Below, one piece after another: positions 1,008 to 60,579 of a DNA stretch of 64,000 nt. The stretch lies in NCBI GenBank assembly GCA_964344485.1, contig CAYFNF010000004.1:66069-130068 (forward strand). The letters run 5' to 3'. The stretch comes from an uncultured Gammaproteobacteria bacterium (GTDB taxonomy: Bacteria; Patescibacteriota; Patescibacteriia; UBA9570; XYC2-FULL-38-9). Position 1 is the first letter of the stretch. Every line of letters starts with the position of its first letter. The notes beneath the pieces were generated by a model, which was not told the DNA's origin, made no database searches, and saw nothing but the letters and a program-made list of their open reading frames with translations. The translations under genes were made by a program, and so were the position numbers.

Positions 1008-2996
1008 TTACTCCAACGATCTTTTTACTTCCGTTGCTTCGTGCGCTTCTATAATATCCCCTTCAATAATATCAACATCTCCTTCTACGCGTAACCCGCA
1101 CTCAGTGCCTTTACCAGCCTCTGCAACGTTTTTCTTCTCTTTTTGCAGCTGTGCAATCAAGCCTTCTCCAATCATCTTTCCTTTGCGCACAATTTTTACC
1201 GGCGCTTTATTCTTCAGCGTTCCATCTTCTACACGGCCACCAAGTATCACACTCTTCTGTCCTTTCTTAAATACCGCAAGCACCTTTAATGATCCGGTCT
1301 TTTCATAAACTGTTTCAGCCTCTAGCAACTCCCCGAGTTGTTCTTTTACAAAATCTATCAACTGATAGATGATATCAAACGTCTCTACAGGGACATTCTC
1401 GTCTTTTGCATACTTTTCTGCGCCTGGAGTCATGCCTGCATGAAATCCAAGTACATACGCATGTGACGCTTGCGCTAGCTGCACGTCGTTCTCTGTAATA
1501 TTCCCCAAACCTTTTTGTACAATTTCTACACTCACCTCTTTGTGCTTGATGCCATGCAATGACTGCACAATCGCTTCCAACGATCCAAGCTTGTCTGCGC
1601 GCAACACAATATTCAAGCTGTTCTTCTCTTCCTCTTCCTCATCTTCTTTCTTCTTCTTTTTCTTTGCATTCAAGAACGCAAATGAATCATACGCTTTTAC
1701 GTTTTGCTTCAATACTTTCTTATCTTTCACTACTTGTAGGATATCTCCAACTACCGGCGCTTTCTTCAAGCCCAACACCTGAGCAGGAGCAGAAGGACCA
1801 GCTTCTTTCAGTGTGTTCCCTTGCCAGTCTTTTAATGATCGAATACGACCTGGAATATTTCCGATCTGAACAATGTCACCGATACGCAGTGTGCCGTTCT
1901 GAACTAAAATCGTTGCCACGGGTCCCATGTGTTTGTCGACGTGGGACTCAATAATTGAGCCCACAGTGTTTCCGTCCGGATTCGCAGTGATAGTCTCTTG
2001 CTCCATATCTGCAACTAATAGAATTGTGTCTAATAGATCATCAATGTTCTCACCTTGCTTTGCACTAATTGGTACACAAATGGTTTTTCCGCCGTAATCT
2101 TCAGGGTTTAAGTTCAGCTCCGAAAGCTCTTTCTTCACTCGTTCTATGTCTGCGTCCGGTTTATCAATTTTATTAATCGCAACAACAAACGGAATCTCTG
2201 CTTCTTCTATAATATGAATAGCTTCAACTGTTTGTGGTTTGATACCGTCATCAGCCGCAATAACGAGAATGGCAATATCAGCAACACGCGCACCACGAGA
2301 ACGCATGGTTGTGAACGCTTCATGGCCAGGGGTGTCAATAAATGTAACAGTTTTCCCTTTCTTTTCTACTTGATACGCGCCAATGTGTTGAGTAATACCA
2401 CCAGACTCTTCATCCACTACATTCGTCGCACGAACTGCATCCAGCAACTTGGTCTTTCCATGATCCACATGACCCATCACTACCACCACTGGGGGGCGGG
2501 GCTTTAATTCATTCTTTTTTTCTGACTCTAACGTCTTTGCTACTAGTGCAGAACGCTCTTCTGGATCGTCGATTTCTGCGCCTTCCAATGAAAGCTCGGG
2601 CGTAAACCCGAGGTCTTCTGCGATGATCGCTGCGGTTTCATAATCCAGCGTTTCATTGATAGTTGCCATAATACCGTTCTGCATCAAGATCGCAATCATG
2701 TCAGCAGGGCGCTTCTCAAGCTGTTCCGCAAAATCTTTTACAGAGATTTTATCCGGAAGCTTGATAGCTTCGCCACCACTTTTCTTTTGTTCAACCTCTT
2801 CTACTTCTTCTGTAGCAAAGATGCTTTTCTTGCTCTCTTTCTTCCGCTTTTCTTTGATTGCGCTGATGATCTTGACTGCTTGTGAGTCATCAATTTTAAT
2901 TGCACGTTCTCCAATATCAAATCCGAGCTCATGCACAGTTGCAAAGAACTCATCCTTGGTCATCTTTAGTTCGCGGTACATTTCTGTAACATTCAT
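1008..2996 (-). CDS. infB: Translation initiation factor IF-2
   Basis: 662 aa. G-domain P-loop [17 protein letters not shown] and NKID motifs. [14 protein letters not shown] low-complexity insert. Confidence 0.95.
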
Positions 2997-3089: not shown

Positions 3090-4340
3090 CTACTTTTTCT
3101 TCTTCTTGGTTTTGAACTTGATCATCTTGCTCCACTCCCCGCACACTCCGTCTTCACATGCAGTCAGCTGTACTGCATATTTTTTTCCGCGTTCAAGATA
3201 CTTGCTTCCAAGACGTAACCCAGCTTTCTTCTTCACATTCTTAAAGATCTTGATCTTTTTAAACTTCTTGGTTTTTTTATTGTACTTCAACAGCTTCACA
3301 CGGTACTTCGTGCCCGCAGAATACTCCTTTACTGCTTTCTTGAACTTGATAATAACTGGCCACTTTTTCTTATTTACCTTCTTTACCTTCTTTTTCTTTA
3401 TCTTATCTAGTTGACCTGGACTTGTTTCCGCGGCAACTAGCGTGAAACTTTCTGAAGCGATAGTATCCACTCCTGGAGCAAGAGTAATGGATGTCATGAC
3501 AAAGAGCCAATCACCTGCAAAAGGATTCTTTACATTAGTTAATGTAAAAGGAATATCCGCACCAGGTTTGAGCTCTTGCCCAAGCGTAATTTTCCCTACA
3601 GCAGATGCGTCACCAACTGCTTCGAGTGTTGCAGTGAAATCTGCTACAAGCTCTGCTTCAGACAAGACAGCAGTTGACTCACCAGGAGCGATCTGTTGTC
3701 CTCCCCAGAAGAAGTAGATCTCTTCTCCAGAAGACAGCGTTGCGTTTTCTTTTACTTGAAATGTCACGTCGTACGTTGTTGCTGCTCCTGCAAGATCAGA
3801 CTCCGGCGCTGCAGTAACCGCAGAGATATTATTCACTTCTGCTGCTGGCTGACCGATAGTGAATTTAAATGGAGTAAACGCAGCATTGCCAAGACCTTGG
3901 GTGGTAATGACACAGTTATAATTTCCTTCAGTTGCTGGGTTTGTTATTCCGGAAAGGTCAAACTCGTGTGACCCAGCCCCAACACCAGTTGGAAAGCTAA
4001 TCTGAAAATTAGAATTTCCATTTGAAATGTCGGAATATACTGCATCCGGAGAGAGAGTTTTAAGCGTGAGCGTCGCAGAGGACAAGTCGAACGCTGTCGT
4101 TGCCTGGTGGTCGCTATCTAGCAAAGCAACTTGAATATTGCTGCCTGCTTTGAGTTTATTTTCTAAGGTTACAGCAAATGAATAGGTCGCTTCAACACTA
4201 GGCATAGGGTCGCTTAGCTCTAATGTGAAAGCGCTGATGTTTTCATCTGGCGCTGGTGGTCCTGCCAATACAGGACTCACGACCAGGAGCGCACAGCATC
4301 CAAGAATGGACGCGATGCACCAGTGACGAAGTTTCTTCAT
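3090..4340 (-). CDS. Secreted protein with an N-terminal signal peptide and an extremely Lys-rich, FN3-like C-terminal domain (roughly the last 110 aa).
   Basis: Signal peptide MKKLRHWCIASILGCCALLVVSPVLAG. The C-terminus (KKKKVKKVNKKKW ... GTKYRVKLL ... CGEWSKMIKFKTKKKKK) is paralogous to the C-terminus of 52264..53586. Confidence 0.6.
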   Translation of the reverse strand: MKKLRHWCIASILGCCALLVVSPVLAGPPAPDENISAFTLELSDPMPSVEATYSFAVTLENKLKAGSNIQVALLDSDHQATTAFDLSSATLTLKTLSPDAVYSDISNGNSNFQISFPTGVGAGSHEFDLSGITNPATEGNYNCVITTQGLGNAAFTPFKFTIGQPAAEVNNISAVTAAPESDLAGAATTYDVTFQVKENATLSSGEEIYFFWGGQQIAPGESTAVLSEAELVADFTATLEAVGDASAVGKITLGQELKPGADIPFTLTNVKNPFAGDWLFVMTSITLAPGVDTIASESFTLVAAETSPGQLDKIKKKKVKKVNKKKWPVIIKFKKAVKEYSAGTKYRVKLLKYNKKTKKFKKIKIFKNVKKKAGLRLGSKYLERGKKYAVQLTACEDGVCGEWSKMIKFKTKKKKK

Positions 4341-4447
4341 AGTTGTTTTTTATTATATATAAAATGACAATAGGCATTGTATCATTTTTTCTCTCTTTTT
4401 TCAAGACTAAAAAAAAGCGGCTCGCCGCCGCTCCCAGGAAAAAAATT

Positions 4448-5245
4448 CTATAACTCTTCAGGTTCTGTAGAATCAAGCAACTGACGATCTTTACCTACAA
4501 TAACTTTTTGCATTTCAGGACGGACCTCTACCTCACACGGCGTATTGAACTGCAGCACATTGTCAGCAGTGAGATGTACAGTATCTTCAGTAGTTGAAGA
4601 GATATGTATAGACTCTACAGGAAAGACGCTTTCAAGAGACTGTTTTGCACTGCGGCGCTTGAGCAAGCCAGAGGACACTGCAGGAGAGATCACCACATCT
4701 ATCTTGCCGTCAGTCACCCGTGAGAAACGCACTGACTCTCCGCCGAGAATATCTCCCCAGTTCAGGATTCGTAGTATTGTTGTCTCTTCTGTAGTTTGAA
4801 TGGAGTACTTGTCATCACAGCGCAGCTTCAATTTTGATGGTTCAGGCACAGACATGGAACCGAGAAAGTACGAATCATTGCAACAGCCTAAGTCGACAGT
4901 TTCGCACAAGCGCTTAGAAAGAACGTTGCATGCTTCCTCAGCTTCAGGAATGCCCAGCACTTCAGCAAAGCGCGAACCAGAGACCAGCGGAATGTACCCA
5001 AGAGTGACGTCATGCGTCGCTACAATATTCACCACAGAGGCAAAGGTAGTGTCGTCACCAACTGCAACAACCGTATGAGCTCCTTTCTTGATTGCATCTT
5101 CAATCAGCTCTTGGGCATTCTTAAACATCGAGAGCTTCTCCACTCGTCCGTTGATGCCAAGATCAATCAAGCGCGTCTCAATCTTTGTGAGTGTTGCTTC
5201 AAATTTCGGATCCTGCGTGAACTTATCGTAGAAATAAAAATACAT
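4448..5245 (-). CDS. Diacylglycerol/lipid kinase catalytic-domain protein (YegS/BmrU-like).
   Basis: N-terminal ...AIKKGAHTVVAVGDDTTFASVVN resembles the DAGK_cat GGDGT region. The family assignment is made from memory. Confidence 0.5.
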   Translation of the reverse strand: MYFYFYDKFTQDPKFEATLTKIETRLIDLGINGRVEKLSMFKNAQELIEDAIKKGAHTVVAVGDDTTFASVVNIVATHDVTLGYIPLVSGSRFAEVLGIPEAEEACNVLSKRLCETVDLGCCNDSYFLGSMSVPEPSKLKLRCDDKYSIQTTEETTILRILNWGDILGGESVRFSRVTDGKIDVVISPAVSSGLLKRRSAKQSLESVFPVESIHISSTTEDTVHLTADNVLQFNTPCEVEVRPEMQKVIVGKDRQLLDSTEPEEL

Positions 5246-5267
5246 GTGCCTCTACTTGAGTCGCTTT

Positions 5268-5696
5268 CTAATCGTCAGAGAGGTCGTCGGTGCTTGTGTT
5301 TTCTTCCCCCTCGGTTGATGTTGATGTTCCAGTAGAGCATCGTCCTTGGACTACTGCTCCGGTTTGTACAGAGATGATCTGTGTCTCGATGTCTCCGTGT
5401 ATGCGTGCAGAGCTCATGAGCTCGACAGTACCAGATGCATGAATGTTGCCTCGCACCTCTCCAGAGATGTGCATGTTTACAGCAGTCACGTCTGCTTCGA
5501 TTTTTGCATCTGTTCCTACGGTGAGGTCTTTTGAGGTTTTAATTGTGCCGACAACTTGTCCCTCAATTTGGATGTTGTCATCACTTTCGAACGTACCTTC
5601 GACTTTCACTGTTGGACCGATGATGGTCTCAGCATTCTGTACAGGTCCTCGGGGTGATACCTCTCCCCCTTCTTCTTTTGTAAACATTGGTGTCAT
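5268..5696 (-). CDS. Bactofilin-family cytoskeletal protein. The start is taken at the internal Met (MTPMFTKEE).
   Basis: Repetitive beta-solenoid segment IIGPTVKVEGTFESDDNIQIEGQVVGTIKT ... VRGNIHASGTVEL, with an acidic tail. Confidence 0.65.
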   Translation of the reverse strand: MTPMFTKEEGGEVSPRGPVQNAETIIGPTVKVEGTFESDDNIQIEGQVVGTIKTSKDLTVGTDAKIEADVTAVNMHISGEVRGNIHASGTVELMSSARIHGDIETQIISVQTGAVVQGRCSTGTSTSTEGEENTSTDDLSDD

Positions 5697-5880
5697 ACGT
5701 TGATAATACGTTATATAATAATGTATAGTGCAACGTCTAGAGTATCCAATGACCATGGCATTGTCAAAGGATAACTTGTGTACGGTGTATGAAGCGCTAC
5801 GGTTGTCAATTATATAAAAATACTATGTAATAGAAGAGCTGCGATAGAGCAGCAGAGAGAAAAATATAAAAAATTGATCT

Positions 5881-6051
5881 ATGACAGAACAACTAGCAAA
5901 AAATGTTCAGCTGCGGAAGGACCTTTTGATCATATTGGTTCTAGCGATTATTATGCTCGCAACGCTCGGAGTGCTGTGGTACTTAGATTCAACACAGCAG
6001 ATCATTACTACATGGTCTCATCAATTCTATCAGTTGTTATTACAGGTGTAA
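5881..6051 (+). CDS. Small single-TM membrane protein, 56 aa (MTEQLAKNVQLRKDLLIILVLAIIMLATLGVLWYL...). Not in the ORF track because it is under 60 aa.
   Basis: ATG at 5881, TAA at 6049..6051, hydrophobic core. A TTGTCA-17-TGTAAT promoter-like motif lies at about 5805..5833. Confidence 0.3.
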   Translation: MTEQLAKNVQLRKDLLIILVLAIIMLATLGVLWYLDSTQQIITTWSHQFYQLLLQV

Positions 6052-6092
6052 TATTTTACGACACATATTTTAGGCTAATATTAGCCTAATAT

Positions 6093-6167
6093 GCCCCTGT
6101 AGTTCAACGGATAGAACAAGACACTCCTAACGTCTAGATGGAGGTTCAATTCCTTCCAGGGGCACCA
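6093..6167 (+). tRNA. tRNA-Arg(CCT), with encoded CCA.
   Basis: Manual cloverleaf: acceptor GCCCCTG/CAGGGGC, anticodon loop CTCCTAA, T-loop TTCAATT, CCA at 6165..6167. Confidence 0.75.
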
Positions 6168-6303
6168 GAGATTTAAAATGGGCGAATTGCTTGCAGTTCG
6201 CTTCAAGCTCCTTCGCCATAGGCTTGCTATGGCTCAGTGCGCTTTTGCTCCACTGCTGCGCACTTCACTCCATTTTAGATCTCTGGAAAATCTGAGCACA
6301 CGA

Positions 6304-6377
6304 GGGCCATTAGCTCAGTTGGCTAGAGCGCTACATTCGCATTGTAGAGGTCGCCGGTTCAAATCCGGCATGGTCCA
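6304..6377 (+). tRNA. tRNA-Ala(CGC)
   Basis: Acceptor GGGCCAT/ATGGTCC with a G3:U70 pair, anticodon loop TTCGCAT, T-loop TTCAAAT. CCA is not encoded. Confidence 0.8.
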
Positions 6378-6390
6378 CTTCAACAACACC

Positions 6391-6984
6391 ATGATAAAGA
6401 ATCTTAAACAATTGAAGCCGCTCCCCTGGCACGAGGTGTTCTCTGTATGGAAACAGACAGAGGGCAGTGACCCATCTTGGCAGCAGACTGCAACCGACGT
6501 GAAAGGCTGGGATTCATGGGAACAGTGGCGGACGTATAAAACAGACAAGCTGGGATTCCCTGAACGTGAGTGGGCGCTGTATGAAATTGAACGACCAATG
6601 ACGACTGTACCAGCGTTCTTGGTCGGTCCTTTTAAAACTTGGCAGCAGCTGTTTGAGAAAAAGATGAAGCAGTCGTTCAAAGACATCGCAGAACATCATA
6701 CTGCTTGGGCAGAACAAAATAAGTCTATTACATATCTTCAAGCGCATTTCCCAGAGCAAACACAGATGATCGGTATGTACTATCCAAAGATGGATGCAGT
6801 CATTGTCTTTGAAGGACATCATCGCGCTGCAGCAATTGCGCTGTCTGTGCATCAAGAATCTATGATAGAATTCAGTAGTAATCCAATGATAGCGCTGACA
6901 ACCATAGACACAGCAGACTACGAGATGTTGAAAGAGCTAGCAACTCAATCATCAAAAAAAGAGGATGTTATTACGGGCGGTTAG
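6391..6984 (+). CDS. Hypothetical Trp-rich protein. The ORF-track start at 6178 runs through tRNA-Ala, so it is taken as an artifact and the start is called at the ATG at 6391.
   Basis: ORF 6178..6984. The stop TAG at 6982..6984 overlaps the 5' end of the tRNA-Val copy. Confidence 0.45.
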   Translation: MIKNLKQLKPLPWHEVFSVWKQTEGSDPSWQQTATDVKGWDSWEQWRTYKTDKLGFPEREWALYEIERPMTTVPAFLVGPFKTWQQLFEKKMKQSFKDIAEHHTAWAEQNKSITYLQAHFPEQTQMIGMYYPKMDAVIVFEGHHRAAAIALSVHQESMIEFSSNPMIALTTIDTADYEMLKELATQSSKKEDVITGG

Positions 6985-7138
6985 CTCAGTTGGTTAGAGC
7001 GCACGATTCACATTCGTGAGGTCACTGGTTCGGTCCGAGTATCGTCCACCCGAGAATTAAATAAATCATATGCAAGGTAAAGAGTTCCCAGGATCAGCAG
7101 CAGGAATGATTCTGCTTAATGGTACTAATGAGGTTTTT
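6929..7138 (+). repeat. Copy 1 of a roughly 210 bp direct repeat. It comprises the 3' end of the upstream gene, tRNA-Val(CAC), and the 5' start of the NUDIX gene.
   Basis: Read directly. It is near-identical to 8478..8683 except for a few substitutions and one small indel. Confidence 0.8.
6975..7048 (+). tRNA. tRNA-Val(CAC) copy 1, degenerate. T-loop TTCGGTC has lost A58, the T-stem has a mismatch, and the acceptor has two G-U pairs. Probable pseudo-tRNA.
   Basis: Aligned by eye to the intact copy at 8520..8593. Confidence 0.55.
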
Positions 7139-7156
7139 CTATACAACTGTCGCTAA
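7070..7156 (+). pseudogene. Truncated 5' fragment of the NUDIX hydrolase gene (MQGKEFPGSAAGMILLNGTNEVFLYNCR*), duplicated along with tRNA-Val.
   Basis: The first roughly 22 codons match the start of 8615..9043, then it diverges and hits a stop. Confidence 0.6.
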
Positions 7157-7185
7157 AATATACCGCTTTGAATTATAAATAGTTT

Positions 7186-8451
7186 ATGAAAGATGAAATC
7201 AAGCAAGATTATAAAATAGCAATCGACAAATACTTTTATGATTGTAAAAAAGAGATCTTGTCACAATTGAGATATGCAAAAAACAATGTCCCATATTACA
7301 AAGAGCTTCTTGCTCAAACTCGTATTGATGCCATTAAAACATATGATGATTTTTCAAAGGCGGTTCCTGTGCTAAATTCAGATACAGTTGCAGAGAAGCC
7401 ATTGGAAATGATTGGAGATGGTGCGCACATAGTATTTAAACGCACAAGTTCGTCCGCTTCTGGGAAGAGTAAGGAAATTTTTTTAACAAAGTCGGATATA
7501 GAGAGCTGGACGGAAAATGGAAGATTATCCATAACGCCGTATTTTAAAAGTGGAATGACTGTCACTCATTCATATAGAGAGGAAGAGTATTATTTATCAG
7601 GGCTTGATGACGCTGTGCTGTATTCGGCTGGCAAGATAACAACATTCAGAGCTGATGATATCAAAGATATTTATAGAAAAGTTACAAAAGCAGATATTTT
7701 GTTGGATTACTCTGAAATGATTTATTATATATCTGAACAAATAAAGAAGTATTCAGCTCAAAATGAATTGAACCAAGAGCGTAGTTTGGTTGTGTCCTAT
7801 ACAGGCGAATATTTAGATGACGAAGATATACAAAAAATTATAGATAATTTTGCGGAAGCAAATATTTCAGTGGAAGTATATAGCGAGTACTCTTTATCAG
7901 AGGTGGGGCCAGTTGCATGCAGTAGTAGCACAGAAAAAAATATTTTTAAACCAATTTATACCGAGGTTTGTTTTGTAGAAATTGTAAATGATGAAGGAAA
8001 GCCATCGAAAGATGGTGAAATTGTAATTACGGTGTTAAATAGAGAGGGCACGAATCTTATCAGATATACTTCAGGAGATTTAGGAGAAATAGTACTAAGA
8101 AATGGTGTGCCAAATATCTGGCTCAAGGGCAGAAAAGGGGGTATTAAAATTGCTAGTTTATTTATTCATCCACAACATATAGTATCAATTATTAGAAAAA
8201 AGGTTGGTGCAGATTTTTTCTGCTACATTGTTGCAGAAAAGCAGAAATATTTTTGTAAAATTGACATCAAGATTATCACACCAAGCAGGATTGATAATGT
8301 TGGCATAAAAGATTTTTTGCTAAAAGAATTAGGGTATATAGACGATATAAAGAAGACAATGGATATGGATGTTACAATAGAACAACGAAAGCTTACGAAT
8401 GTGGAGCTTCGCAAGGCTTTCTCATTTGTTGTAAATGGAGAATGGCTTTAA
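7186..8451 (+). CDS. PaaK/CapK/coenzyme-F390-synthetase-like adenylate-forming enzyme, located between the two repeat copies.
   Basis: 421 aa. TSSSASGKSKEIFLTKSD matches the (S/T)SG(T/S)TGxPK adenylation motif. RYTSGDLGE matches YRTGD. It is notably AT-rich. Confidence 0.5.
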   Translation: MKDEIKQDYKIAIDKYFYDCKKEILSQLRYAKNNVPYYKELLAQTRIDAIKTYDDFSKAVPVLNSDTVAEKPLEMIGDGAHIVFKRTSSSASGKSKEIFLTKSDIESWTENGRLSITPYFKSGMTVTHSYREEEYYLSGLDDAVLYSAGKITTFRADDIKDIYRKVTKADILLDYSEMIYYISEQIKKYSAQNELNQERSLVVSYTGEYLDDEDIQKIIDNFAEANISVEVYSEYSLSEVGPVACSSSTEKNIFKPIYTEVCFVEIVNDEGKPSKDGEIVITVLNREGTNLIRYTSGDLGEIVLRNGVPNIWLKGRKGGIKIASLFIHPQHIVSIIRKKVGADFFCYIVAEKQKYFCKIDIKIITPSRIDNVGIKDFLLKELGYIDDIKKTMDMDVTIEQRKLTNVELRKAFSFVVNGEWL

Positions 8452-8477
8452 AACCTAACTAATATAATAAGCATGAG

Positions 8478-8683
8478 TGAAAGAGCTAGCAACTCGATCA
8501 TTAAAAAAGATGTTATTACGGGCGGTTAGCTCAGTTGGTTAGAGCGTACGATTCACATTCGTGAGGTCACTGGTTCGATTCCAGTATCGCCCACCCGAGA
8601 ATTAAATCGAACATATGCAAGGTAAAGAGTTCCCAGGATCAGCAGCAGGCATGATTCTGCTTAATGATACTAATGAGATTTTT
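8478..8683 (+). repeat. Copy 2 of the roughly 210 bp direct repeat, with an intact tRNA-Val and an intact NUDIX start.
   Basis: Read directly. The upstream part retains the last codons (..KKDVITGG*) of the gene that ends at 6984. Confidence 0.8.
8520..8593 (+). tRNA. tRNA-Val(CAC), intact.
   Basis: Acceptor GGGCGGT/ATCGCCC, anticodon loop TTCACAT, T-arm ACTGG-TTCGATT-CCAGT. Confidence 0.85.
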
Positions 8684-9043
8684 TTAATGAGGCGTTCATC
8701 TAATACCAGGAATGACCATAATATGTGGAGTATTCCAGGAGGTCGTGTAGAGATGAATGAGAAAGTCGAGGACGCTGCAAAGCGCGAAACGCTAGAAGAA
8801 TGCGGTGTGACCGTTGAAGAGGTACAGCACCTTGGATTCGTGGATCATATATTGAATGAGTATAGTCAGCACTGGATTCCGCAGATTTTCCTAGCGACCA
8901 AATGGACAGGAGATCCCATGAACTGCGAAAAAGACAAGTGTGAAGAAGTAGGATGGTATGCACTGGATCATTTACCAGAGGATCGCTCTCAAGTGGTGAC
9001 AGATGCAGTGCAGTTGCTACAATGTTCCATAGAGAACAAGTAA
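8615..9043 (+). CDS. NUDIX hydrolase
   Basis: Nudix box GGRVEMNEKVEDAAKRETLEECGV. Confidence 0.8.
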   Translation: MQGKEFPGSAAGMILLNDTNEIFLMRRSSNTRNDHNMWSIPGGRVEMNEKVEDAAKRETLEECGVTVEEVQHLGFVDHILNEYSQHWIPQIFLATKWTGDPMNCEKDKCEEVGWYALDHLPEDRSQVVTDAVQLLQCSIENK

Positions 9044-9053
9044 GAATGTACAT

Positions 9054-9542
9054 ATGTCTGACCCAAGTTTTCAAGCGCTTGTTACTTCACTAGCAAAGAA
9101 GAAAAAGCGCGCTATATTAATTACTGGTATATCTTCCATTGTAGTTGGTGTTGCTGTTCTTTATATACGAAGCATTATTACTGTTGAAGGGGAATCGACT
9201 GGGTATTTACTACTAGGAATTGTTTTTTGTGTTATGGGAGTTCTTTCTTTCTTATCCTCGTTTCGCAGTGATCCGTTTGTGCATGCAGCATTAAAGGAGC
9301 CGAGTAAAATTGCATGGGCGTATACTGAGAAAGTAAGCGACGGCGAAGGAGGGCAAAAAAGGGACAAATTACGCGTTGTTATTCGCTATACAAATAAGAA
9401 AAAGTCGTATTTTGAGTTAAAAACCACTAAAGCTGAAGAGTTATACCAGGGGCTTCAAAAAAATGTTCCGCATGCGACATTTGGATATAGCAAGGAAATC
9501 AGGAAAAAGTATAAGCAAGACCCAAGCTCATTAATTCAATAA
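9054..9542 (+). CDS. Hypothetical membrane protein with two TM helices.
   Basis: 162 aa with hydrophobic segments IVVGVAVLYI / LLLGIVFCVMGVLSFL. Confidence 0.45.
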   Translation: MSDPSFQALVTSLAKKKKRAILITGISSIVVGVAVLYIRSIITVEGESTGYLLLGIVFCVMGVLSFLSSFRSDPFVHAALKEPSKIAWAYTEKVSDGEGGQKRDKLRVVIRYTNKKKSYFELKTTKAEELYQGLQKNVPHATFGYSKEIRKKYKQDPSSLIQ

Positions 9543-9556
9543 GGAGCACTGCGAAT

Positions 9557-9574
9557 AATGTTCCACGTGGAACA
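9557..9574. repeat. 18 bp perfect palindrome ATGTTCCACGTGGAACAT (copy 1).
   Basis: Read directly. An identical copy is at 10255..10272. Confidence 0.9.
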
Positions 9575-9586
9575 TAAGAGAGATAC

Positions 9587-9659
9587 GGGCCATTAGCTCA
9601 GCTGGCAGAGCGTTCGCATGGCATGCGAGAGGTCATCGGTTCAAGCCCGATATGGTCCA
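9587..9659 (+). tRNA. tRNA-Ala(GGC)
   Basis: Acceptor GGGCCAT/ATGGTCC with G3:U70, anticodon loop ATGGCAT, T-loop TTCAAGC. Confidence 0.8.
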
Positions 9660-9679
9660 CATCAATTAGCAAAAAGCAT

Positions 9680-9994
9680 ATGACAGAACCAATACAAATG
9701 AAGCGAAAAGAGGCTCAAGATCTAAGAATAATGCGATTAGCACGAGTAATAGTAATGTTAATTGCTCTAGGAGCAGCAATGGGAGAGTATGCTGTTTCAC
9801 GCCCACCACGGAGACCGGATGAGGATCCGCATTCTGAGGTGGATAATGAAATGTCTAATATAGGATTTGAAAAAGTGTCCCAGGCTCAAGTGCAAGAGGA
9901 AGTTGATAAACTATCCCCTGGACTGAAGCAGCAATTATCCGTTGCCATTGATGCAATTAGTGCGGCAATAAGCCAATCTGAAGAACAGGTGTAG
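9680..9994 (+). CDS. Small protein with an N-terminal TM helix and an acidic C-terminus. Start is taken at the first Met after the tRNA.
   Basis: ORF track 9623..9994 overlaps the tRNA, so it is trimmed to the ATG at 9680 (MTEPIQMKRKEAQDLRIMRLARVIVMLIALGAAMG...). Confidence 0.4.
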   Translation: MTEPIQMKRKEAQDLRIMRLARVIVMLIALGAAMGEYAVSRPPRRPDEDPHSEVDNEMSNIGFEKVSQAQVQEEVDKLSPGLKQQLSVAIDAISAAISQSEEQV

Positions 9995-10006
9995 AACAAA
10001 ATACCA

Positions 10007-10035
10007 TTGACAAAAGGGGAAAATTGCGCTATCAT
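10007..10035 (+). promoter_or_regulatory. Sigma70-type promoter TTGACA-17 nt-TATCAT in front of the Cys-rich peptide gene.
   Basis: Read directly. It has a perfect -35 and a near-consensus -10. Confidence 0.5.
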
Positions 10036-10088
10036 TCATAATCGTTTGTTGCTGACAGAGTCGCACTAATTATTAACACAATAAATAT

Positions 10089-10196
10089 ATGTGCGGAGAA
10101 GAAAAAGATCCATGCAAATGCGATCCTAACGATCCAAACTGTGATTGCGATCCTAAGGAGGAAGAGAAAAAGAGTGGTTGCGGATGCAGTTGCTAA
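10089..10196 (+). CDS. 35 aa cysteine-rich peptide MCGEEKDPCKCDPNDPNCDCDPKEEEKKSGCGCSC (9 Cys), metallothionein-like.
   Basis: ATG at 10089, TAA at 10194..10196. It is bracketed by the consensus promoter at 10007 and the intrinsic terminator at 10224. Absent from the ORF track because it is under 60 aa. Confidence 0.4.
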   Translation: MCGEEKDPCKCDPNDPNCDCDPKEEEKKSGCGCSC

Positions 10197-10223
10197 AAGC
10201 AATACTACAGTAGTTTATAGAAA

Positions 10224-10254
10224 ACACCCCTGCAAAGAACAGGGGTGTTTTAAT
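10224..10254. terminator. Intrinsic terminator hairpin CACCCCTG-caaagaa-CAGGGGTG followed by a T-run, with A-run and T-run on either side (bidirectional).
   Basis: Read directly. Confidence 0.6.
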
Positions 10255-10272
10255 TATGTTCCACGTGGAACA
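10255..10272. repeat. 18 bp perfect palindrome ATGTTCCACGTGGAACAT (copy 2).
   Basis: Read directly. Confidence 0.9.
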
Positions 10273-11067
10273 TTATAAATACTCTGACTTTGGAATATCC
10301 CTAGCTGGTCGTGCAATACTCCACATGATTTCAAACATACTCCTAAATGTCTGAATAATGTCTTTAGACTCGATTGTTACTGCAAAAGGCACATCAAAGG
10401 AAGCTATTAATAGCGTATTACCAAATATAGCGTTATCACTCGCAAATTGATACTTTTGGTCAATTACTCGTATTTTATGAAATCTACCGTGGTTTCTCTT
10501 TGCCCACTCAATACTGGTTCTATCATGCGTGACTATCTCACGTGCAGAGGTGCTTCCCTGCGCTAACCAATCTACGAAAGCATCGGAAGTCTGTTTTGGT
10601 ATTGCGGTTTCGAACGCTTCTACGTCCACGCCAAAGAAGTCTATCTGTCGGTTCTCTCGAAACATCTTCCAATATAATTGAGTGAATTCTTCTAGCCCGT
10701 AATAAAAGTGTACATTTGGTTTTGACCCTTGTTTTAGGTATAAATCGTCTAAAAAAGGCTTAATTTTACTGAAAGAATCTAACCGCTCTGTTAATTGTTC
10801 TCCTAGAACATTTGGTTCTGCAGGTTCATATATAGTGGTAGAACCCTTTCTAATATGACGAATCAATGCTTGTTCTTGTAGCTCATCAAGTATCACATAT
10901 GTAGTTGAGCGCTTTATCTTCGACTCCCGTGATATTTCCAGTGCTGTGGCTTGCCCTAATTCAAGAACAGCAAGATACACTCTTGCTTGTTTTTCATTTA
11001 GTCCTAGTTGCTCTAACTCTTGAACAAGCTCCATATCTGTCAAAAATAATGTCAACAGATTATACAT
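10273..11067 (-). CDS. TrmB-family transcriptional regulator.
   Basis: N-terminal wHTH LGLNEKQARVYLAVLELGQATALEIS plus a C-terminal TrmB-like domain. Paralog of 41591..42367. Confidence 0.65.
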   Translation of the reverse strand: MYNLLTLFLTDMELVQELEQLGLNEKQARVYLAVLELGQATALEISRESKIKRSTTYVILDELQEQALIRHIRKGSTTIYEPAEPNVLGEQLTERLDSFSKIKPFLDDLYLKQGSKPNVHFYYGLEEFTQLYWKMFRENRQIDFFGVDVEAFETAIPKQTSDAFVDWLAQGSTSAREIVTHDRTSIEWAKRNHGRFHKIRVIDQKYQFASDNAIFGNTLLIASFDVPFAVTIESKDIIQTFRSMFEIMWSIARPARDIPKSEYL

Positions 11068-11199
11068 ACATTTTAAGGAAATACCATATATAAGTCAAAA
11101 AGCGCCGAAAGTTTTGACAACAATTTTTCTGCGCGGTATGTTCTTCTGTTCTTCTTGGTGTGGGAATCGCCGAGCAGAACATGCTTTGAGGAGGCAGAG

Positions 11200-11727
11200 A
11201 TGAAGCACTCGAAGTTGGCTCTGATCCTGGCAAGCCTGAGCCTGATGCTGGTGATCCCGAGCGTGTCGCGCGCGCAAGAGGAGAAGCCTGAGCCCGCGGT
11301 CAACCTGTTCACCGGAGCGTCCGTGGTCTTCGGTCTTCCGGACCAAGGAGCGCTCATGGGGTACGGATCTGTGGGCGTGGCCGTGCTGATCCCGGTGCGC
11401 GGACGCTTCGCGATCATCCCGGGCGGAGGGTTCGAAATAGCCCCAAAAATGGGCAATTTCGGGCCTTTCTGCAGCGTCGCGTTCGACTTCGCACTCAGCG
11501 ACGTGGTGGCTCTGGACCTGATCGTGGGGCTGGCGTATGACTACGATCCGGTCCTGGGACAGGAGATCGGCAAGCCGCACCAGGGCTACGTCATGGCCGG
11601 GCCAGGCCTCTCATTCCTGCTGCCCAATGGTATGAGCGTGGCGCCTGCGCTGCTCTACTCCGTGAACCTGCAGGGACTGGGGCACTTCCTGAGCCCTAGC
11701 GTGAGCGTGAACATCCCGCTGCCGTAG
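11200..11727 (+). CDS. Secreted Gly-rich beta-rich protein of GC-rich island B.
   Basis: Signal peptide MKHSKLALILASLSLMLVIPSVSRA. SD GAGGAGG lies 5 nt upstream of the ATG at 11200. Confidence 0.5.
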   Translation: MKHSKLALILASLSLMLVIPSVSRAQEEKPEPAVNLFTGASVVFGLPDQGALMGYGSVGVAVLIPVRGRFAIIPGGGFEIAPKMGNFGPFCSVAFDFALSDVVALDLIVGLAYDYDPVLGQEIGKPHQGYVMAGPGLSFLLPNGMSVAPALLYSVNLQGLGHFLSPSVSVNIPLP

Positions 11728-11803
11728 GGATACAACGCAAAAAACGCGATTTCAGGAGCACTCGGAATCACAAATGCCTGTGAATAACCGAGTTTTTTTA
11801 TGT

Positions 11804-11832: not shown

Positions 11833-12273
11833 ATACGTACAAATAAAAACAAAACACAAAATAAAATAATGGTGAAAGCCATCACATTTTCATTAATTCT
11901 TTTTTAAGTTGCCAGCTCTGGCTTTTTTTATTTGTTTTGTGCTAAGGTAGATCATTCTCCCAAGTATTTGCCTTTAAATTATTATGGCAAAGCAAATCAT
12001 TCAAAACCTTCTGGACTACCTGGAAAACCATGTAAACCTGGGAAACCGAGCGGCCGCGTGCTATTTGCAATTCCCTTATTTTTTCTATATATCGTTCAAG
12101 CGCTAATAGAGTCTTACTACTATCTCTTTCGACCAGCAGCGTGCAGTTTTGCTGTATTAGCAACACAAGAAGTACAAGGTACATACGTACGATCGTTCAA
12201 TCAATATAAATCCATAGCCAGCGGCACCAGATACTATACTGTAAGCCTCTCCACAGTAGTTGTTGCCGCAGTC

Positions 12274-15200
12274 ATGGTTATTAACTTCCTGTCATTTTCA
12301 TTCTGCCACGCTGAAGCTCAACAGATTCGTGCTATTGGAGTTGCTGGTCCTGTTCCAGTGGAAGTTGTGTCGAACACCAATGATTCAGGCGCTGGTTCGC
12401 TGCGACAAGTAATTTTGAATGCAAATGCTTCAGAAGGAATGAGTTTTGCCGCGATAATGACAACTGGAACCCTAGAGCTCGATAGTGAGTTGCCAACTAT
12501 CAATGAACCGATCAATTTCGGTATAGGTGCAGACAACTTTATCATTGATGGGTCGAAGTTAGGTGAAGGTTCTAGAGGAATTCATTTTACGGCAGGAAGC
12601 GACTGGTCATATCTGCCGACTTTCACCATTCAGAACTTTGGTTCAGGTGTCTACATTGACAATACTAGTAACATCAACGGATTAACTGGCTTAACACTCA
12701 CCAACAACGGAGAAGGTTTTTCAGTATATGACAGTTCAGACATTACGATTTCAAATAACACCATCAGCAATAGCACGACCACAGGAATTAATACATGGGA
12801 CGTTGACGATCTGGTTATTAGCGACAATACCGTCACCACACAAACGGTTGGTATTAGTGTAGATGCTGAAGACGAGACTGGCGGTGAGTCCACTACGGTT
12901 TCGATCACTGGCAACACAGTCTCTGATTCAAATGGATCAGTGGACACAGGCCTAGGCATTACCGCACAAGCAGCAGCAGATGTGCTGATTCAGAACAATA
13001 CGATTTATGATTGTGATGAGGAAGGAATTGTCACAGAGGGTGTCGTAACTATGGAAGTAGATCAGAATGAAATATACAACTCGAATGATGGAATAAAAGC
13101 GCGCGGGGATTGTACTGACTGTTCATATACGAACAACTCTATCTATAACACTGCTGACTCGTGCCTCGCCTTGCATCCGACAAACGATGCAATAACAGTG
13201 ACAGGGAATACATTGAATAACTGCGCCTCAGACGCTGGCGATCAAACATACGGACTGGTATTAGGTGCGCCTGGTAGTACTGTTACTGGAAATACATTCA
13301 CGAATATTGATAGTGATCTCGGCGCGTTTATACTAGGAAGTACCGCCACAGGCACGACAATTCAAGGGAATTATTTCGGTGTGACCGAAGCTGGTGTAGA
13401 AGGCGCCAATGGGCCGTATTCAGTATTTTTCTATGGCGGCGGATCCGGCTACACTATTGGAGGAAGTGAAGCGTCTCAAGCAAACACATTTGTAGGAAGT
13501 CCAGCAGCAGAGTTTGCTATGACAGCAGTGACTTCTAGTACCATCTCGGGCAACTATTTCGGTGTGACTGACGAAGGGACAGTTATCGGAGGAACCGTCG
13601 GAATTATTGCGCAACAATCAAGCAACAATACCATCTCTGGAAATACGTTCCGAAAGTTCACGGGATCGGCAATAAGCATGACGAATAACGCTGATGGCAA
13701 CACGATTCAAGATAACACATTTAACACCGGGGATATTGAAGCGATTCACCTGATAAGCGGGTCTTCTGGTAACACGATTTCCGGTAACACGATTACGAAT
13801 TTTGAAGACGGTGTGGAGATTGACGCCACTCAAGACAGCGGAGACGCGACTGAAGGGAATACAGTCACGCAGAATACTATGACTGATATCTCCCAAGATC
13901 CAATTGCGCTAGAAGGCGGTGCGAACGATGGTGTGGAAGCCCCAGTGTTAACATGGTCCTATTTTGATGAAGTTGGGGCCACTGTTATCGGTACTGCATC
14001 AGAAGCAGGAACTGTTGAGGTCTATTATGATGATGACGATGAAATGGAGACCTATGTAGCACAAGCAACTGTGAATGAAGATCTATCTTGGTGGTGGTCC
14101 AATATATCAGTGACAGAAATTCCTGACGGAACTGCATACACCGCATCATTCACAGATGAAGACGGGAACACTTCAGAGATACATGTGGACGGTGAAGCGC
14201 CAACCACATCAGCATCCATTTCAGGCGGTAACTATGAAACAGCGCAGACCGTTACACTCTCTGTTGCTGATAATACAGATCCGTATGCAGTTCGCTACTA
14301 CTTGATTGGTGGAGATGGAGAAGGTGCAGGAATGAGTATGGCAGCAGATGTCTACCAAGAGTACACCGAGGCCATCACAATCTCCGAGGATACTGTACTC
14401 TACTACTACTCTATTGATGATGACGGAAATCAAGAAGAGTCACATCAAGAGATATACACTATTGGTGCAGAAGCTGTAGAGATTTCAGATTTACAGATTA
14501 AGACAATAGATGAAAAATCCGTAGACATTGTTTGGATCACGAACGTCCTAGCAGACTCTACCGTGTATTACGGCACAGATCCAGATAATCTTACCAACAG
14601 TAAAAATGACGATTCCTTAGTCACAAATCATACCATTAGTCTTACAGAACTTACACAAGATGTTACGTACTATATTATTGTTGAAAGCACCAACGGTAGT
14701 ACCACAGACACTGTAAAGTCAAGTTTTGTTATTTCCTCTGAGCCAGCCACCGAGGATGTTGAAATATCTAATGTGAAGGTGTCGAGCATCGCTAGTACCA
14801 CAGCAACCGTGACCTGGACCACGAACGTCGCTGCAGACTCCACAGTGTACTACGGAAAGAACAAGGACAAGCTGACTAAGAACGTTCACTCTTCAACACT
14901 AACCACCTCCCATAGTATTGAATTATCTAGCTTAGAATCTGGCGTGACCTACTATATTCGCGTTGAAAGCACAGACGGTAGCACTACAGACACTGCGACA
15001 TCGAACTTTACCACCACAGTAGAGCCGCCAGAGATCGTTTCGCCAGAAGATGGAGCGTACTACTTTACACCGTACATGACATTAGAAGAAGAGCCGATCT
15101 CAGTAGAGTTGCAAAATCCAGATTTAACCTCAGGGCGAAACCGTGTGTATGTTGATGACACGCAACAGACTAATACCAACGGCAAGAAATATGTTGAGAT

Positions 15201-17247
15201 TGAAGAGGACGGTAGTGCAACGTTTGATATTCCAGTAGAAGACAATGAATCGTTAACGAATGACGGGCACAAGTTGACTGCTGACGCGAAAAGCGACCAA
15301 GGCGTAGAGTCTGAAGCATCCGAACCAGTGAAGTTTGCCATGGCGTCAAAGACCACGCTTGAAACGTTCGTGGTTGAGCCAGATAAAAATAAACGCAGTG
15401 CCACTGCAACCAATACCACACTGATTTCGCAACCAACGTTTACTTCCATTGCACCAGGGAAGAAGAACGCGACTGTTGAGATGTGGATTCGAAATTCGAC
15501 CTATACATCATGGACTCTGGAGGGAGAAGCAACTATCCAGAATCCTGGAGAAGACATAATTAACTTCAAACGCAAACCGTACTTGTCATTACCAACAGGA
15601 AAGAATGATGTAAAATTTGTCGCATACGATAAAGACGGTGAAGAGTACTGGGAGTCAGATCCATTCTCTATTGTGTATTACAAACCAACCCCAGTGGTGT
15701 TTGTTGGCGCTGAAGAGAACTATCAAGGATCATATAAGAAACCACTGTTAACAGGACTTGCCGGGTCGGGTTGGCATGTGGATGTGTATATTGATGACGT
15801 GCTGAACGGCACATTCCAAGCAGCTAGTGATCCATCTGGTACAGCAAGCTTTTCATATGAGCCATTCTTAGACTTAGACCTTGGTGAACATTCAGTCGTG
15901 TTTCGAACATATGAAGCAAATGGCAAGCCAACCATAGATACCAGCGGCACGTTTACAGTCACAGCAACTACGACAACAACTCCAACTCCATCAACAGATG
16001 ACGAGTCTCCAACAGAAGACGGTACTCCAGACGAAGAGACTCCAACAGAGGATCCTGAGAAAGAGAAGGAAGAAGAGGAGGACGAAAAAGAAAAAGAAAA
16101 GGACAAAAAGAAGGAAGAAGAGGAGGAGTATACAGTTCTACCAATTAAGGAAGAGTTGGTTGGTGAGACCACAGAAGATGATGACGGTGTTGTGGTGTAT
16201 GGGAACACTGATCCGAACCAAGAAGTCACCATTGATATCTGTACAGGAGAGCGAGAGACAGAAGTGGTCGTTACCTCAGATGATGAAGGAGTCTTTCAAG
16301 CAGAGCTGATTAAGGACGAGTTTCCTCCTGGCAAGACTACTATTATCGCTACAACCAAAGGAGGTACACAAAAGATTATTGGAAACTTTGTGAAGCAAGC
16401 TGAGCAGCGGACCAGCAGAACGTTCTTGCTAGTGCTGATCAATTTAATAGCGGTCTGGCTGATATCACTTCTAGTAAATTACTTCTATAATCGAAATCCA
16501 AGCCCACCGCGTTTGCAGAAGATTACCCTACCTCGATTGTCACAGATGGTTGCCATGGGCGTTGTGAGTGCCGCGCTTGCTGGTTTAGGTGGGTATGCAT
16601 ACTTCACGCAACCTCAAGGAGAGCAAGTTGCCTTCACCTCTTCACTGAACTTACCGGACTTCTCGGTCACATCTGTAAATAACCAGGAAGTGAAGCCTGG
16701 GCAAGAACTCGTCTTTGAAGCTGGTGATACGATTACGATTCGAGGTATTGCACCTCCGGGTGTATACGGATCAGTCACGATCTGTGATGAAGTAGAGTCG
16801 TATACCTTCACGGTGGATGATGACGGACAATGGGAGTTAGTCATTCCAATAGAAGAAGTGCCGAACTTCCAAGCAGTGTACAGTGCATCTCTAGTTGATG
16901 ATGATGGAGAAGAAGTCGCACCAAGTACATCAATTGCTGATATTGAAATTCAAGACGCACAAGATCCAGTGCTGAATTGGGTGATTGTTTGCGTTATCGT
17001 GTTATTAATCATTACTACCAATAAATTGGAGTGGGATATCTTCCGCCGCATTAACTTCCAAAGATTTGAAGAGCTTCCTAAAGCAGAGACAGTCCCGAGC
17101 GCTCCCGAAGAGGGTCGACCCGCAGAGCAGGCGTCATTGTTTCATGAAGCAGAGCCTCCTGATGTGAATGAGCCAGAAGTCACTGATGAAGATGCTGGCA
17201 ACGAGAAAGAACCCGAGGACCCAGACAAGTACACTAGCGTGTTTTAG
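12274..17247 (+). CDS. Giant surface-anchored protein of about 1,650 to 1,770 aa. It contains parallel beta-helix repeats, two FN3-like repeats, Ig-like domains, an acidic T/E/K-rich linker, a TM helix and an acidic tail. The frame is open from a TTG at 11932, so the true start is uncertain between 11932 and 12274.
   Basis: Repeated NNTISGNTF-type beta-helix turns. Duplicated ...STVYYG...TYYI.VESTDGSTTDT modules. TM LLVLINLIAVWLISLLV. Confidence 0.65.
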   Translation: MVINFLSFSFCHAEAQQIRAIGVAGPVPVEVVSNTNDSGAGSLRQVILNANASEGMSFAAIMTTGTLELDSELPTINEPINFGIGADNFIIDGSKLGEGSRGIHFTAGSDWSYLPTFTIQNFGSGVYIDNTSNINGLTGLTLTNNGEGFSVYDSSDITISNNTISNSTTTGINTWDVDDLVISDNTVTTQTVGISVDAEDETGGESTTVSITGNTVSDSNGSVDTGLGITAQAAADVLIQNNTIYDCDEEGIVTEGVVTMEVDQNEIYNSNDGIKARGDCTDCSYTNNSIYNTADSCLALHPTNDAITVTGNTLNNCASDAGDQTYGLVLGAPGSTVTGNTFTNIDSDLGAFILGSTATGTTIQGNYFGVTEAGVEGANGPYSVFFYGGGSGYTIGGSEASQANTFVGSPAAEFAMTAVTSSTISGNYFGVTDEGTVIGGTVGIIAQQSSNNTISGNTFRKFTGSAISMTNNADGNTIQDNTFNTGDIEAIHLISGSSGNTISGNTITNFEDGVEIDATQDSGDATEGNTVTQNTMTDISQDPIALEGGANDGVEAPVLTWSYFDEVGATVIGTASEAGTVEVYYDDDDEMETYVAQATVNEDLSWWWSNISVTEIPDGTAYTASFTDEDGNTSEIHVDGEAPTTSASISGGNYETAQTVTLSVADNTDPYAVRYYLIGGDGEGAGMSMAADVYQEYTEAITISEDTVLYYYSIDDDGNQEESHQEIYTIGAEAVEISDLQIKTIDEKSVDIVWITNVLADSTVYYGTDPDNLTNSKNDDSLVTNHTISLTELTQDVTYYIIVESTNGSTTDTVKSSFVISSEPATEDVEISNVKVSSIASTTATVTWTTNVAADSTVYYGKNKDKLTKNVHSSTLTTSHSIELSSLESGVTYYIRVESTDGSTTDTATSNFTTTVEPPEIVSPEDGAYYFTPYMTLEEEPISVELQNPDLTSGRNRVYVDDTQQTNTNGKKYVEIEEDGSATFDIPVEDNESLTNDGHKLTADAKSDQGVESEASEPVKFAMASKTTLETFVVEPDKNKRSATATNTTLISQPTFTSIAPGKKNATVEMWIRNSTYTSWTLEGEATIQNPGEDIINFKRKPYLSLPTGKNDVKFVAYDKDGEEYWESDPFSIVYYKPTPVVFVGAEENYQGSYKKPLLTGLAGSGWHVDVYIDDVLNGTFQAASDPSGTASFSYEPFLDLDLGEHSVVFRTYEANGKPTIDTSGTFTVTATTTTTPTPSTDDESPTEDGTPDEETPTEDPEKEKEEEEDEKEKEKDKKKEEEEEYTVLPIKEELVGETTEDDDGVVVYGNTDPNQEVTIDICTGERETEVVVTSDDEGVFQAELIKDEFPPGKTTIIATTKGGTQKIIGNFVKQAEQRTSRTFLLVLINLIAVWLISLLVNYFYNRNPSPPRLQKITLPRLSQMVAMGVVSAALAGLGGYAYFTQPQGEQVAFTSSLNLPDFSVTSVNNQEVKPGQELVFEAGDTITIRGIAPPGVYGSVTICDEVESYTFTVDDDGQWELVIPIEEVPNFQAVYSASLVDDDGEEVAPSTSIADIEIQDAQDPVLNWVIVCVIVLLIITTNKLEWDIFRRINFQRFEELPKAETVPSAPEEGRPAEQASLFHEAEPPDVNEPEVTDEDAGNEKEPEDPDKYTSVF

Positions 17248-17332
17248 CGTTAGGTTGAAAATAGTAAAAAAGGGCTAACATTAGCCAATATTTTCATCTT
17301 TCATGTATGCGTATTGCGTTGGTTTTTTTGCA

Positions 17333-17361
17333 TTGACTTTCTAGTTGCTCTGTAATACAAT
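17333..17361 (+). promoter_or_regulatory. Sigma70-type promoter TTGACT-17 nt-TACAAT.
   Basis: Read directly. Confidence 0.45.
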
Positions 17362-17367
17362 AGAGCC

Positions 17368-17524
17368 CCTGATAGCAGGGAAATCTATGCAACAGAACAA
17401 GACACAACTCATTTTTTCACAGTATCACTGCATTAGCATGCAGTACTTGATAGTGGATCCTGAGTTGTAAATACACTTCTATTTATGAGCTTCAGCTCCG
17501 GATCCAATCCGGAGCTTTTCAATT
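17368..17524 (+). ncRNA. Candidate roughly 160 nt small transcript bounded by the promoter at 17333 and the terminator at 17494. It could alternatively encode a 27 aa peptide MQQNKTQLIFSQYHCISMQYLIVDPEL (ATG at 17387).
   Basis: A strong promoter and a strong hairpin terminator flank a short region with no track ORF. Confidence 0.3.
17494..17524 (+). terminator. Intrinsic terminator: 10 bp perfect stem AGCTCCGGAT-cca-ATCCGGAGCT followed by TTTTC.
   Basis: Read directly. Confidence 0.65.
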
Positions 17525-17919
17525 TGCAGCAGTGACCTTCTGAGGATGGATGCATTATACGGCGTTCATCTTGAGGGGGTCACCAAGGACGAGCAATCAT
17601 AGTCATCTTGCGTGGCCAACCCCTCGCAGCTAACTCGTAACAAGATGTCTATGGCTAGAACACTTGCTACTCTGCTCATCCTTGCAGCGTTGTGGGAGGC
17701 CCAGCATGGGCATTTCCACGAGCACATCGAACCTCATCCAGCGAGAGTTGTTCAACGAGCTCCGATCACTCGGAACTTGACGAATGCCCGCTTGGCGTGG
17801 GACGCAGCTGCAACAGCCCATTGAGTTTTACTCATGGGCTTCTTTTCTGGGTCGGTCTTGATATCAGGCTCGCCGTTGCATAATTGCACTCTTTTCTGTA
17901 GAGTAAAGACAGAACATAT

Positions 17920-29317: not shown

Positions 29318-29350
29318 TATCACTCGAATAGAACACACATCACCACACAA

Positions 29351-29378
29351 ACCGCTCATTGTAGCGGTTTTGTGTTTG
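29351..29378 (+). terminator. Intrinsic terminator AACCGCT-cattgt-AGCGGTT followed by a T-run.
   Basis: Read directly. Confidence 0.55.
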
Positions 29379-29420
29379 CGTTCATACAGGATGCAGCACG
29401 AACGCAGGAGGGTATAAAAA

Positions 29421-29441
29421 AACTGCGTGTGTGGCGCAGTT
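29421..29441 (-). terminator. Hairpin AACTGCG-tgtgtgg-CGCAGTT preceded on the + strand by A7. On the - strand this gives a T-run, making it a terminator for the island D genes.
   Basis: Read directly. Confidence 0.5.
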
Positions 29442-29444
29442 GGC

Positions 29445-36115: not shown

Positions 36116-36120
36116 ATAAA

Positions 36121-60577: not shown

Positions 60578-60579
60578 CA

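Follow-up and report, generated by a model that had tools for sequence, protein, structure and literature searches.

Two identical palindromes in a Kerfeldbacteria-like genome are very probably chromosomal parS sites

We analysed a stretch of 64,000 nucleotides (hereafter the window) and focused on two identical palindromes, the whole pair lying within 0.7 kb. Both palindromes are very probably chromosomal parS, the centromere-like sites at which ParB (Spo0J) of the ParABS system loads and so assists the segregation of daughter chromosomes. The pair is non-random and an instance of a well-known element, and the palindromes belong to an already known, textbook kind. The host is a Kerfeldbacteria-like member of Patescibacteria (CPR): the proteins of the window match Candidatus Kerfeldbacteria, and the proteins flanking the sites are 48-74% identical to those in the loci of relatives.

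An exact search of the window bears out the claim of an earlier note, made from the letters alone, that an 18-bp palindrome occurs here in exactly two identical copies. The 18-mer ATGTTCCACGTGGAACAT is found at 9558-9575 and 10256-10273, so that the coordinates given before (9557-9574 and 10255-10272) were one base too low, and no third copy is present in the 64-kb window with up to three mismatches allowed. The note had also thought a chance origin unlikely, and 100 dinucleotide-preserving shuffles agree with this, yielding a mean of 0.03 matches to the 18-mer and never reaching two. Each copy contains a perfect 16-bp palindrome, TGTTCCACGTGGAACA, at 9559..9574 (putative parS-1) and 10257..10272 (putative parS-2), neither of which is assigned to a strand. 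The two sites are 698 bp apart and both intergenic. parS-1 lies 16 nt 3' of the stop codon of an ORF at 9054-9542 and 12 nt before the tRNA-Ala(GGC) gene, while parS-2 lies between two genes, 5 nt past the terminator of the one for a Cys-rich peptide and immediately next to the stop codon of a TrmB-like gene. When the flanking bases are included, each copy becomes one 23-nt arm (9555-9577 and 10254-10276) of a perfect inverted pair that brackets 676 nt. An ENA contig of 2066 bp (L001) shows 100% identity to window positions 9526-11591, both copies included, and this contig and the window may derive from the same reads.

When the palindrome was compared with known protein-binding motifs, its 16-bp core matched validated parS exactly. 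At both window sites, TGTTCCACGTGGAACA is identical in 16 of 16 positions to parS2 and parS3 of Pseudomonas aeruginosa, which are the perfect palindromes of that species with the highest ParB affinity (PMC4368675). It also equals the P. putida parS consensus (PMC4368675, PMC7022226), and it fits the general or B. subtilis consensus TGTTNCACGTGAAACA except at the base symmetric to N (PMC4368675, PMC7022226). Other motifs were considered and rejected. Operators of CRP/FNR-, ArsR/SmtB- and PadR-type regulators and the LexA operator (Cheo box) misfit in sequence and in view of the cross-phylum spread of the motif, and neither dif sites nor sequencing adapters fit the sequence or that distribution.

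To define how widely the motif occurs, the exact 18-mer was scanned against one genome per species, and at least 120 loci were matched, compared with about 9 chance matches estimated from the database size. The loci listed span Bacteroidota, Acidobacteriota, Planctomycetota, Firmicutes, Proteobacteria, Actinobacteria, Nitrospirota and Patescibacteria, and among these listed matches a locus often holds 2-6 copies. The presence of the same 18-mer in unrelated phyla points to a universal protein-binding site. We then searched the 120 listed loci (up to 8 kb each) with ParB and ParA HMMs built from the loci's own proteins and with a TrmB-like HMM built from the family in the window; ParB was matched in 38 of them and ParA in 36, and a TrmB-like protein in 3. 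In the reverse control, GTTNCACGTGNAAC was present in 43 of 80 ParB-encoding metagenome loci, with 76 sites observed against 0.036 expected. The motif is thus tightly associated with parAB operons across phyla. In two complete genomes the 18-mer was located at the origin-side end of the chromosome, at 4.56 of 4.577 Mb in Neobacillus and at 5.19 of 5.228 Mb in Terriglobus roseus. The ParB-encoding metagenome loci, which came from a ParB profile scan, included no CPR-like loci, and a separate metagenome scan with the TrmB-like protein returned no relatives.

Two degenerate look-alikes, likewise without strand assignment, are found near the pair. The first, TGTTCCATAGAGAACA at 9023..9038, keeps the outer arms intact and carries four mismatches in the central CGTG core; it was left out of the site count because these mismatches sit in the core that defines parS, and it is probably either decayed, non-functional or a product of chance. 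The second, TGTTCCGCATGCGACA at 9464..9479, falls within the 3' end of the ORF at 9054-9542 and differs from parS by 3-4 mismatches, again with the outer arms intact and the core mutated; it is probably non-functional. The window contains four instances of the arm pattern TGTTC-N6-GAACA, where 0.08 would be expected.

The gene content described earlier for the segment between the copies is also present. The tRNA-Ala(GGC) gene (9587..9660, plus strand) is a conserved neighbour of the parS clusters. It is followed by an ORF of 104 aa (9680..9994, plus strand) with a transmembrane segment and an acidic tail, for which Pfam returned no family match, and by a gene unit for a Cys-rich acidic peptide (10007..10251, plus strand). 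The CDS of this unit, at 10089-10196, encodes 35 aa with 9 Cys, and it is preceded by a promoter-like site that agrees with the consensus at 11 of 12 positions (10007-10035) and followed by an intrinsic terminator at 10221-10251. Beyond parS-2, as had been noted, lies the 3' end of a TrmB-family helix-turn-helix gene (10273..11067, minus strand; PF01978, E = 4.7e-15), the stop codon of which adjoins the site. A second TrmB-like paralogue is located at 41591-42367 of the window. The three genes that lie between the copies are simply located inside a parS cluster, and one of them, the ORF at 9680-9994, is variable filler between the parS sites.

More evidence comes from four Kerfeldbacteria relatives, in which parS clusters were found in the syntenic region that runs from the TrmB-like gene to tRNA and bactofilin genes. 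There are two parS sites in L122, four perfect ones in L123/L124, six in L125 (two perfect and four with one mismatch) and four perfect ones in L039. The TrmB-like orthologues are 58% identical to the window protein in L122, 52% in L125 and 48% in L123/L124, and in L039 the identity to the window is 56% for CNNM, 74% for thioredoxin and 68% for glutamate dehydrogenase. In L122, a perfect parS begins at the base after the TrmB-like stop codon, same as in the window, and the alignment of the two around parS-2 gives 24 consecutive identical columns with diverged flanks. The second parS of L122 lies 10 nt from tRNA-Ala(GGC), and the segment between its two sites contains only this tRNA and a gene for a 33-aa Cys-rich peptide with its own promoter and terminator; the ORF at 9680-9994 is missing from this segment and gave no tblastn match in the relatives. 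A parS is found in the matching position upstream of tRNA-Ala(GGC) in both L122 and L039, and the distance from this tRNA to a parS or parS-like site is about 10-60 nt in L122, L123, L125 and L039. Cys-rich peptides of 33-55 aa are encoded between parS sites in L122, L123/L124 and L039. Since the palindrome stays intact inside diverged flanks, selection acts on the sites as such, and the intervening DNA is not a unit. The retention of orthologous positions while the flanks diverge points to purifying selection on parS.

The mechanism that we propose follows established ParB biology. Each 16-bp palindrome would be recognised by a ParB dimer via its helix-turn-helix domains, and parS binding would make ParB close, in a CTP-dependent manner, into a sliding clamp. 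The clamp would then spread onto flanking DNA to give a partition complex, which would be moved by ParA and, near the origin, would load SMC condensin. Having two sites, with 698 bp from one to the other, could provide redundancy and a higher rate of ParB loading; site redundancy has been shown for the origin-proximal parS of P. aeruginosa (PMC4368675).

We also examined whether the pair is close to a replication origin. The cumulative GC skew of the window is lowest at 4-6.5 kb, and the genes change orientation between a bactofilin gene (ending at 5756, minus strand) and a tRNA block (from 5874, plus strand). GC skew and strand switch together suggest that the parS pair lies 3-6 kb from a plausible origin. 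The L122 locus shows a V-shaped skew like that of the window; at the parS cluster of L123 the skew does not switch. No DnaA-box cluster was detected anywhere in the 64-kb window, and neither dnaA nor dnaN is among its annotated ORFs. A 670-bp gap at 17248-17919 was considered as an origin and does not look like one.

With respect to the cognate proteins, motif scan, HMM search and Pfam tables gave no ParA or ParB homologue for the 64-kb window or for the loci retrieved from eight CPR relatives, which together span about 100 kb. When a 5.8-billion-protein set was searched with a ParB profile, the best 120 matches were all near the query proteins, those named coming from Bacteriovoracaceae/Bacteriovoracia and Tissierellia. 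Elsewhere the motif of chromosomal parS is linked to parAB operons, and the window differs in having no parAB in 64 kb. Nevertheless, a site without parB is not unusual, because ParB is also absent from 82 of the 120 listed 18-mer loci (up to 8 kb). The literature searched yielded no description of ParB/parS for Patescibacteria, CPR or Saccharibacteria. In Kerfeldbacteria, and perhaps in the wider CPR, the parS cluster may be fixed at the tRNA-Ala(GGC)/metallothionein-like peptide/TrmB-like locus with no parAB for tens of kb. The sites could also be regulatory, with ParB or the always-adjacent TrmB-like protein controlling the Cys-rich peptide gene or the tRNA; alternatively, a canonical ParB could be missing from some of these reduced genomes, the universal centromere sequence having passed to another protein. 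We consider such an added or substituted role very unlikely.

The palindromes had been suggested to be operator sites for a dimeric regulator. This stands in the broad sense of a binding site for a dimeric protein, as parS is bound by a ParB dimer, but not in the sense of a transcriptional operator of a local regulator, since the motif is the pan-bacterial parS. Under an operator reading, which we regard as very improbable, the tRNA-Ala, the small ORF and the gene for the Cys-rich (metallothionein-like) peptide would be controlled from these sites, either by the neighbouring TrmB-family regulator or by some other dimeric transcription factor encoded locally. The location does lend it some appeal: the TrmB-like gene adjoins parS-2, TrmB-like genes lie within 0.5-1 kb of the parS clusters in L039, L077, L071 and the orthologous Kerfeldbacteria loci, in L125 one parS comes 8 nt before the start codon of the TrmB gene, and a -10-like hexamer (AATAAT or AATTAT) precedes each window site; at parS-1, itself 12 nt upstream of tRNA-Ala, the hexamer is weak and overlapped by the site. 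However, the same parS is universal, occurring in more than 100 unrelated genomes, and a TrmB-like gene is nearby in only 3 of the 120 listed loci, compared with ParB in 38 of 120. Conversely, the distant TrmB-like homologues in L126 and L127 (31-33% identity) have no parS within 10 kb on either side, and the window paralogue at 41591-42367 has no such site nearby. Moreover, parS-2 sits behind a terminator and where the TrmB gene has its 3' end, which does not look like the position of an operator. CPR loci carry several TrmB paralogues, with two in the 64-kb window and two each in L123 and L126, so adjacency by chance or synteny is likely.

Nor do the two copies look like the ends of a mobile element. 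The suggestion that they delimit a mobile cassette or MITE-like element of 0.7 kb, as its terminal inverted repeats or as recombination sites, draws on the perfect 23-nt inverted arms around 676 nt and on the variable content between sites among relatives, L122 being without the ORF at 9680-9994. Yet any two copies of a self-complementary 16-mer necessarily resemble inverted repeats. The flanks of the arms (CTGCGA on one side and AAATAC on the other) show no direct repeat, and target-site duplication is therefore absent; neither the cassette nor the adjacent genes examined showed a transposase or integrase, and the 64 kb hold no third copy. The sites are instead kept at orthologous positions in four relatives, in 2-6 copies, where they bracket a conserved tRNA and peptide gene. 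The idea that relatives might lack the intervening 0.7 kb also failed, as they retain the sites together with the tRNA and the gene for the Cys-rich peptide, and only the one internal ORF varies. With syntenic sites that vary in number and in intervening DNA, the mobile-element reading is extremely unlikely. Hardly any probability attaches, by our estimate, to the reading of the palindromes as RNA or single-stranded DNA hairpins, be they terminators, tRNA-processing signals or attenuators. Each palindrome can fold into a 7-bp stem with a 4-nt loop, and in other genomes many parS sites form the tip of a longer palindrome whose flanks vary, and T-runs follow some of these as they do in terminators. 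In the window, by comparison, no complementary flank extends either palindrome, the surroundings of parS-1 show no folding advantage over shuffles (z = -0.83), parS-2 comes after a strong terminator that is separate from it, and Rfam gave no family match at either site. All 16 bases are conserved exactly across phyla, which fits recognition by a protein and not a stem.

As parS sites, the palindromes can be set beside known systems. They resemble the chromosomal parS of P. aeruginosa, P. putida and B. subtilis in being clustered and intergenic, and perhaps also in lying near the origin, with the 16 bp identical to the Pseudomonas sites. The present cluster is kept at tRNA-Ala(GGC) and the Cys-rich peptide gene and not at parB or gidB. 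Myxococcus xanthus, the parS consensus of which is TGTTCCACGTGGAACG, shares the same C/G half-site variant and the close packing of several sites, but it has 22 sites as compared with two in the window and 2-6 in the relatives (PMC7022226). Plasmid centromeres (F sopC, P1 parS and the RK2 KorB sites) and the Firmicutes Noc site are likewise short palindromes, often in arrays, bound by helix-turn-helix proteins of the ParB family; their sequences differ, however, and the window holds housekeeping genes (IF-2, RbfA, NusA, trigger factor and tRNAs). The Noc-binding site, for instance, is ATTTCCCGGGAAAT, unlike the window motif. The archaeal TrmB operator, TGM, is TATCAC-N5-GTGATA. TrmB-family operators are similar to the window pair in being palindromes near a TrmB-family gene, but they are unrelated in sequence, and the window motif does not track TrmB-like genes from genome to genome. 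MITEs and cassettes share with the pair two inverted identical ends around a short segment; the pair differs from them in showing no target-site duplication, dispersal or transposase and in being conserved by synteny.

The main value of this assignment lies in annotation, as it marks the partition (centromere) locus, and perhaps the domain near the origin, in the genome of an uncultivated Kerfeldbacteria-like bacterium. Marking parS helps to orient the chromosome and to read the local GC skew, and it removes a false lead, the segment being neither a mobile cassette nor a regulon. The conserved parS clusters in several CPR lineages also provide a small, useful data point. For genome-wide scanning, the form of the parS motif that we propose is TGTTNCACGTGNAACA.

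The segment around ORF 7186-8451 resembles an inserted cassette more closely than does the 0.7-kb stretch between the two parS sites (predicted ParB sites), for which the earlier note had raised this possibility. Two direct-repeat copies of about 213 bp, 92-94% identical and 1545 bp apart, lie on either side of the ORF at 6929-7141 and 8478-8686. The repeat takes in a complete tRNA-Val(CAC), together with the 3' end of ORF 6391-6984 and the initial 72 nt of the NUDIX gene. The bracketed ORF has a low GC content (35%) and encodes a distant phenylacetate-CoA-ligase-like enzyme (PDB 4r1l, E = 2.7e-8). We found a single tRNA-Val and no phenylacetate-CoA-ligase-like gene at the syntenic loci of two Kerfeldbacteria relatives, L122 and L125. 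Around this segment, five same-strand tRNA genes (Arg-CCT, Ala-CGC, two Val-CAC and Ala-GGC) lie within 3.6 kb at 6093-9660, interspersed with genes for small proteins; L122 has these four species of tRNA within just 375 bp and lacks the intervening genes.

Although the genome has about 44% GC, the window contains patches of 58-65% GC at 1-600, 11100-11730, 28500-31000, 36100-36900, 42500-44100, 48300-50300 and 59900-60600. The one at 11200-11727 is a native gene whose product, a Gly-, Ala-, Pro- and Val-rich protein with a signal peptide, has 43% identity to that of the syntenic gene in L122, and the junction of the patch is also found in the public ENA contig L001.

The interval 4000-6500, where cumulative GC skew reaches its minimum and gene orientation switches, is a candidate replication origin region. 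The genes for IF-2, a DAGK-like protein and a bactofilin are on the minus strand up to 5756, and tRNAs and ORFs occupy the plus strand from 5874 onward; L122 and L125 both conserve the small ORF at 5881-6051. Within 4000-6500 we detected neither a DnaA-box cluster nor a large non-coding gap.

In four Kerfeldbacteria genomes, a gene for a small acidic Cys-rich peptide is flanked by two parS sites: at 10089-10196 in the window, 10852-10953 (minus strand) in L122, 14679-14780 (minus strand) in L123/L124 and 1283-1450 (plus strand) in L039. The peptides are 33-55 aa long, the 33-35-aa versions having 8-9 Cys, and are metallothionein-like, with CxC/CGC motifs. They can barely be aligned with one another, and Pfam returned no match. 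In the window and in L122, the gene has its own promoter and terminator.

Across phyla, parS is frequently the center of a longer palindrome whose flanks vary from site to site. We surveyed such extensions in 120 loci listed from a one-genome-per-species scan for the exact 18-mer (L002-L121) and in 80 ParB-encoding metagenome loci (L128-L207); examples are L075, L013, L023, L119, L149 and L161. Among the matches listed, 13% of the 149 18-mer sites are extended by at least five complementary bases (expected, 0.1%), and in an unbiased set 12% reach at least eight bases past the 14-bp core. Several of the extended palindromes, with A-runs and T-runs, resemble bidirectional terminators. Neither parS site in the window has a palindromic extension. 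A fourth TGTTC-N6-GAACA match, TGTTCATATACGAACA at 13120-13135 within ORF 11932-17247 (1771 aa), has a core unlike that of parS and thus probably arose by chance.

In some genomes, parS sites are packed into very dense arrays. Ten GTTNCACGTGNAAC sites lie within 1.5 kb of a Moraniibacteria contig (L077, 6415-7897), and ten such sites within 0.8 kb adjoin gyrA in a Parcubacteria contig (L085, 7009-7799), where the spacing repeats as 50/41 nt. A 619-bp Planctomycetota contig holds five exact 18-mer copies (L105, 86-550). Four more stand in AT-rich DNA of a Muribaculaceae contig (L073, 183-592), three of them directly followed by DnaA-box-like TGTGAATAA, TGTTGATAA or AGTGGATAA.
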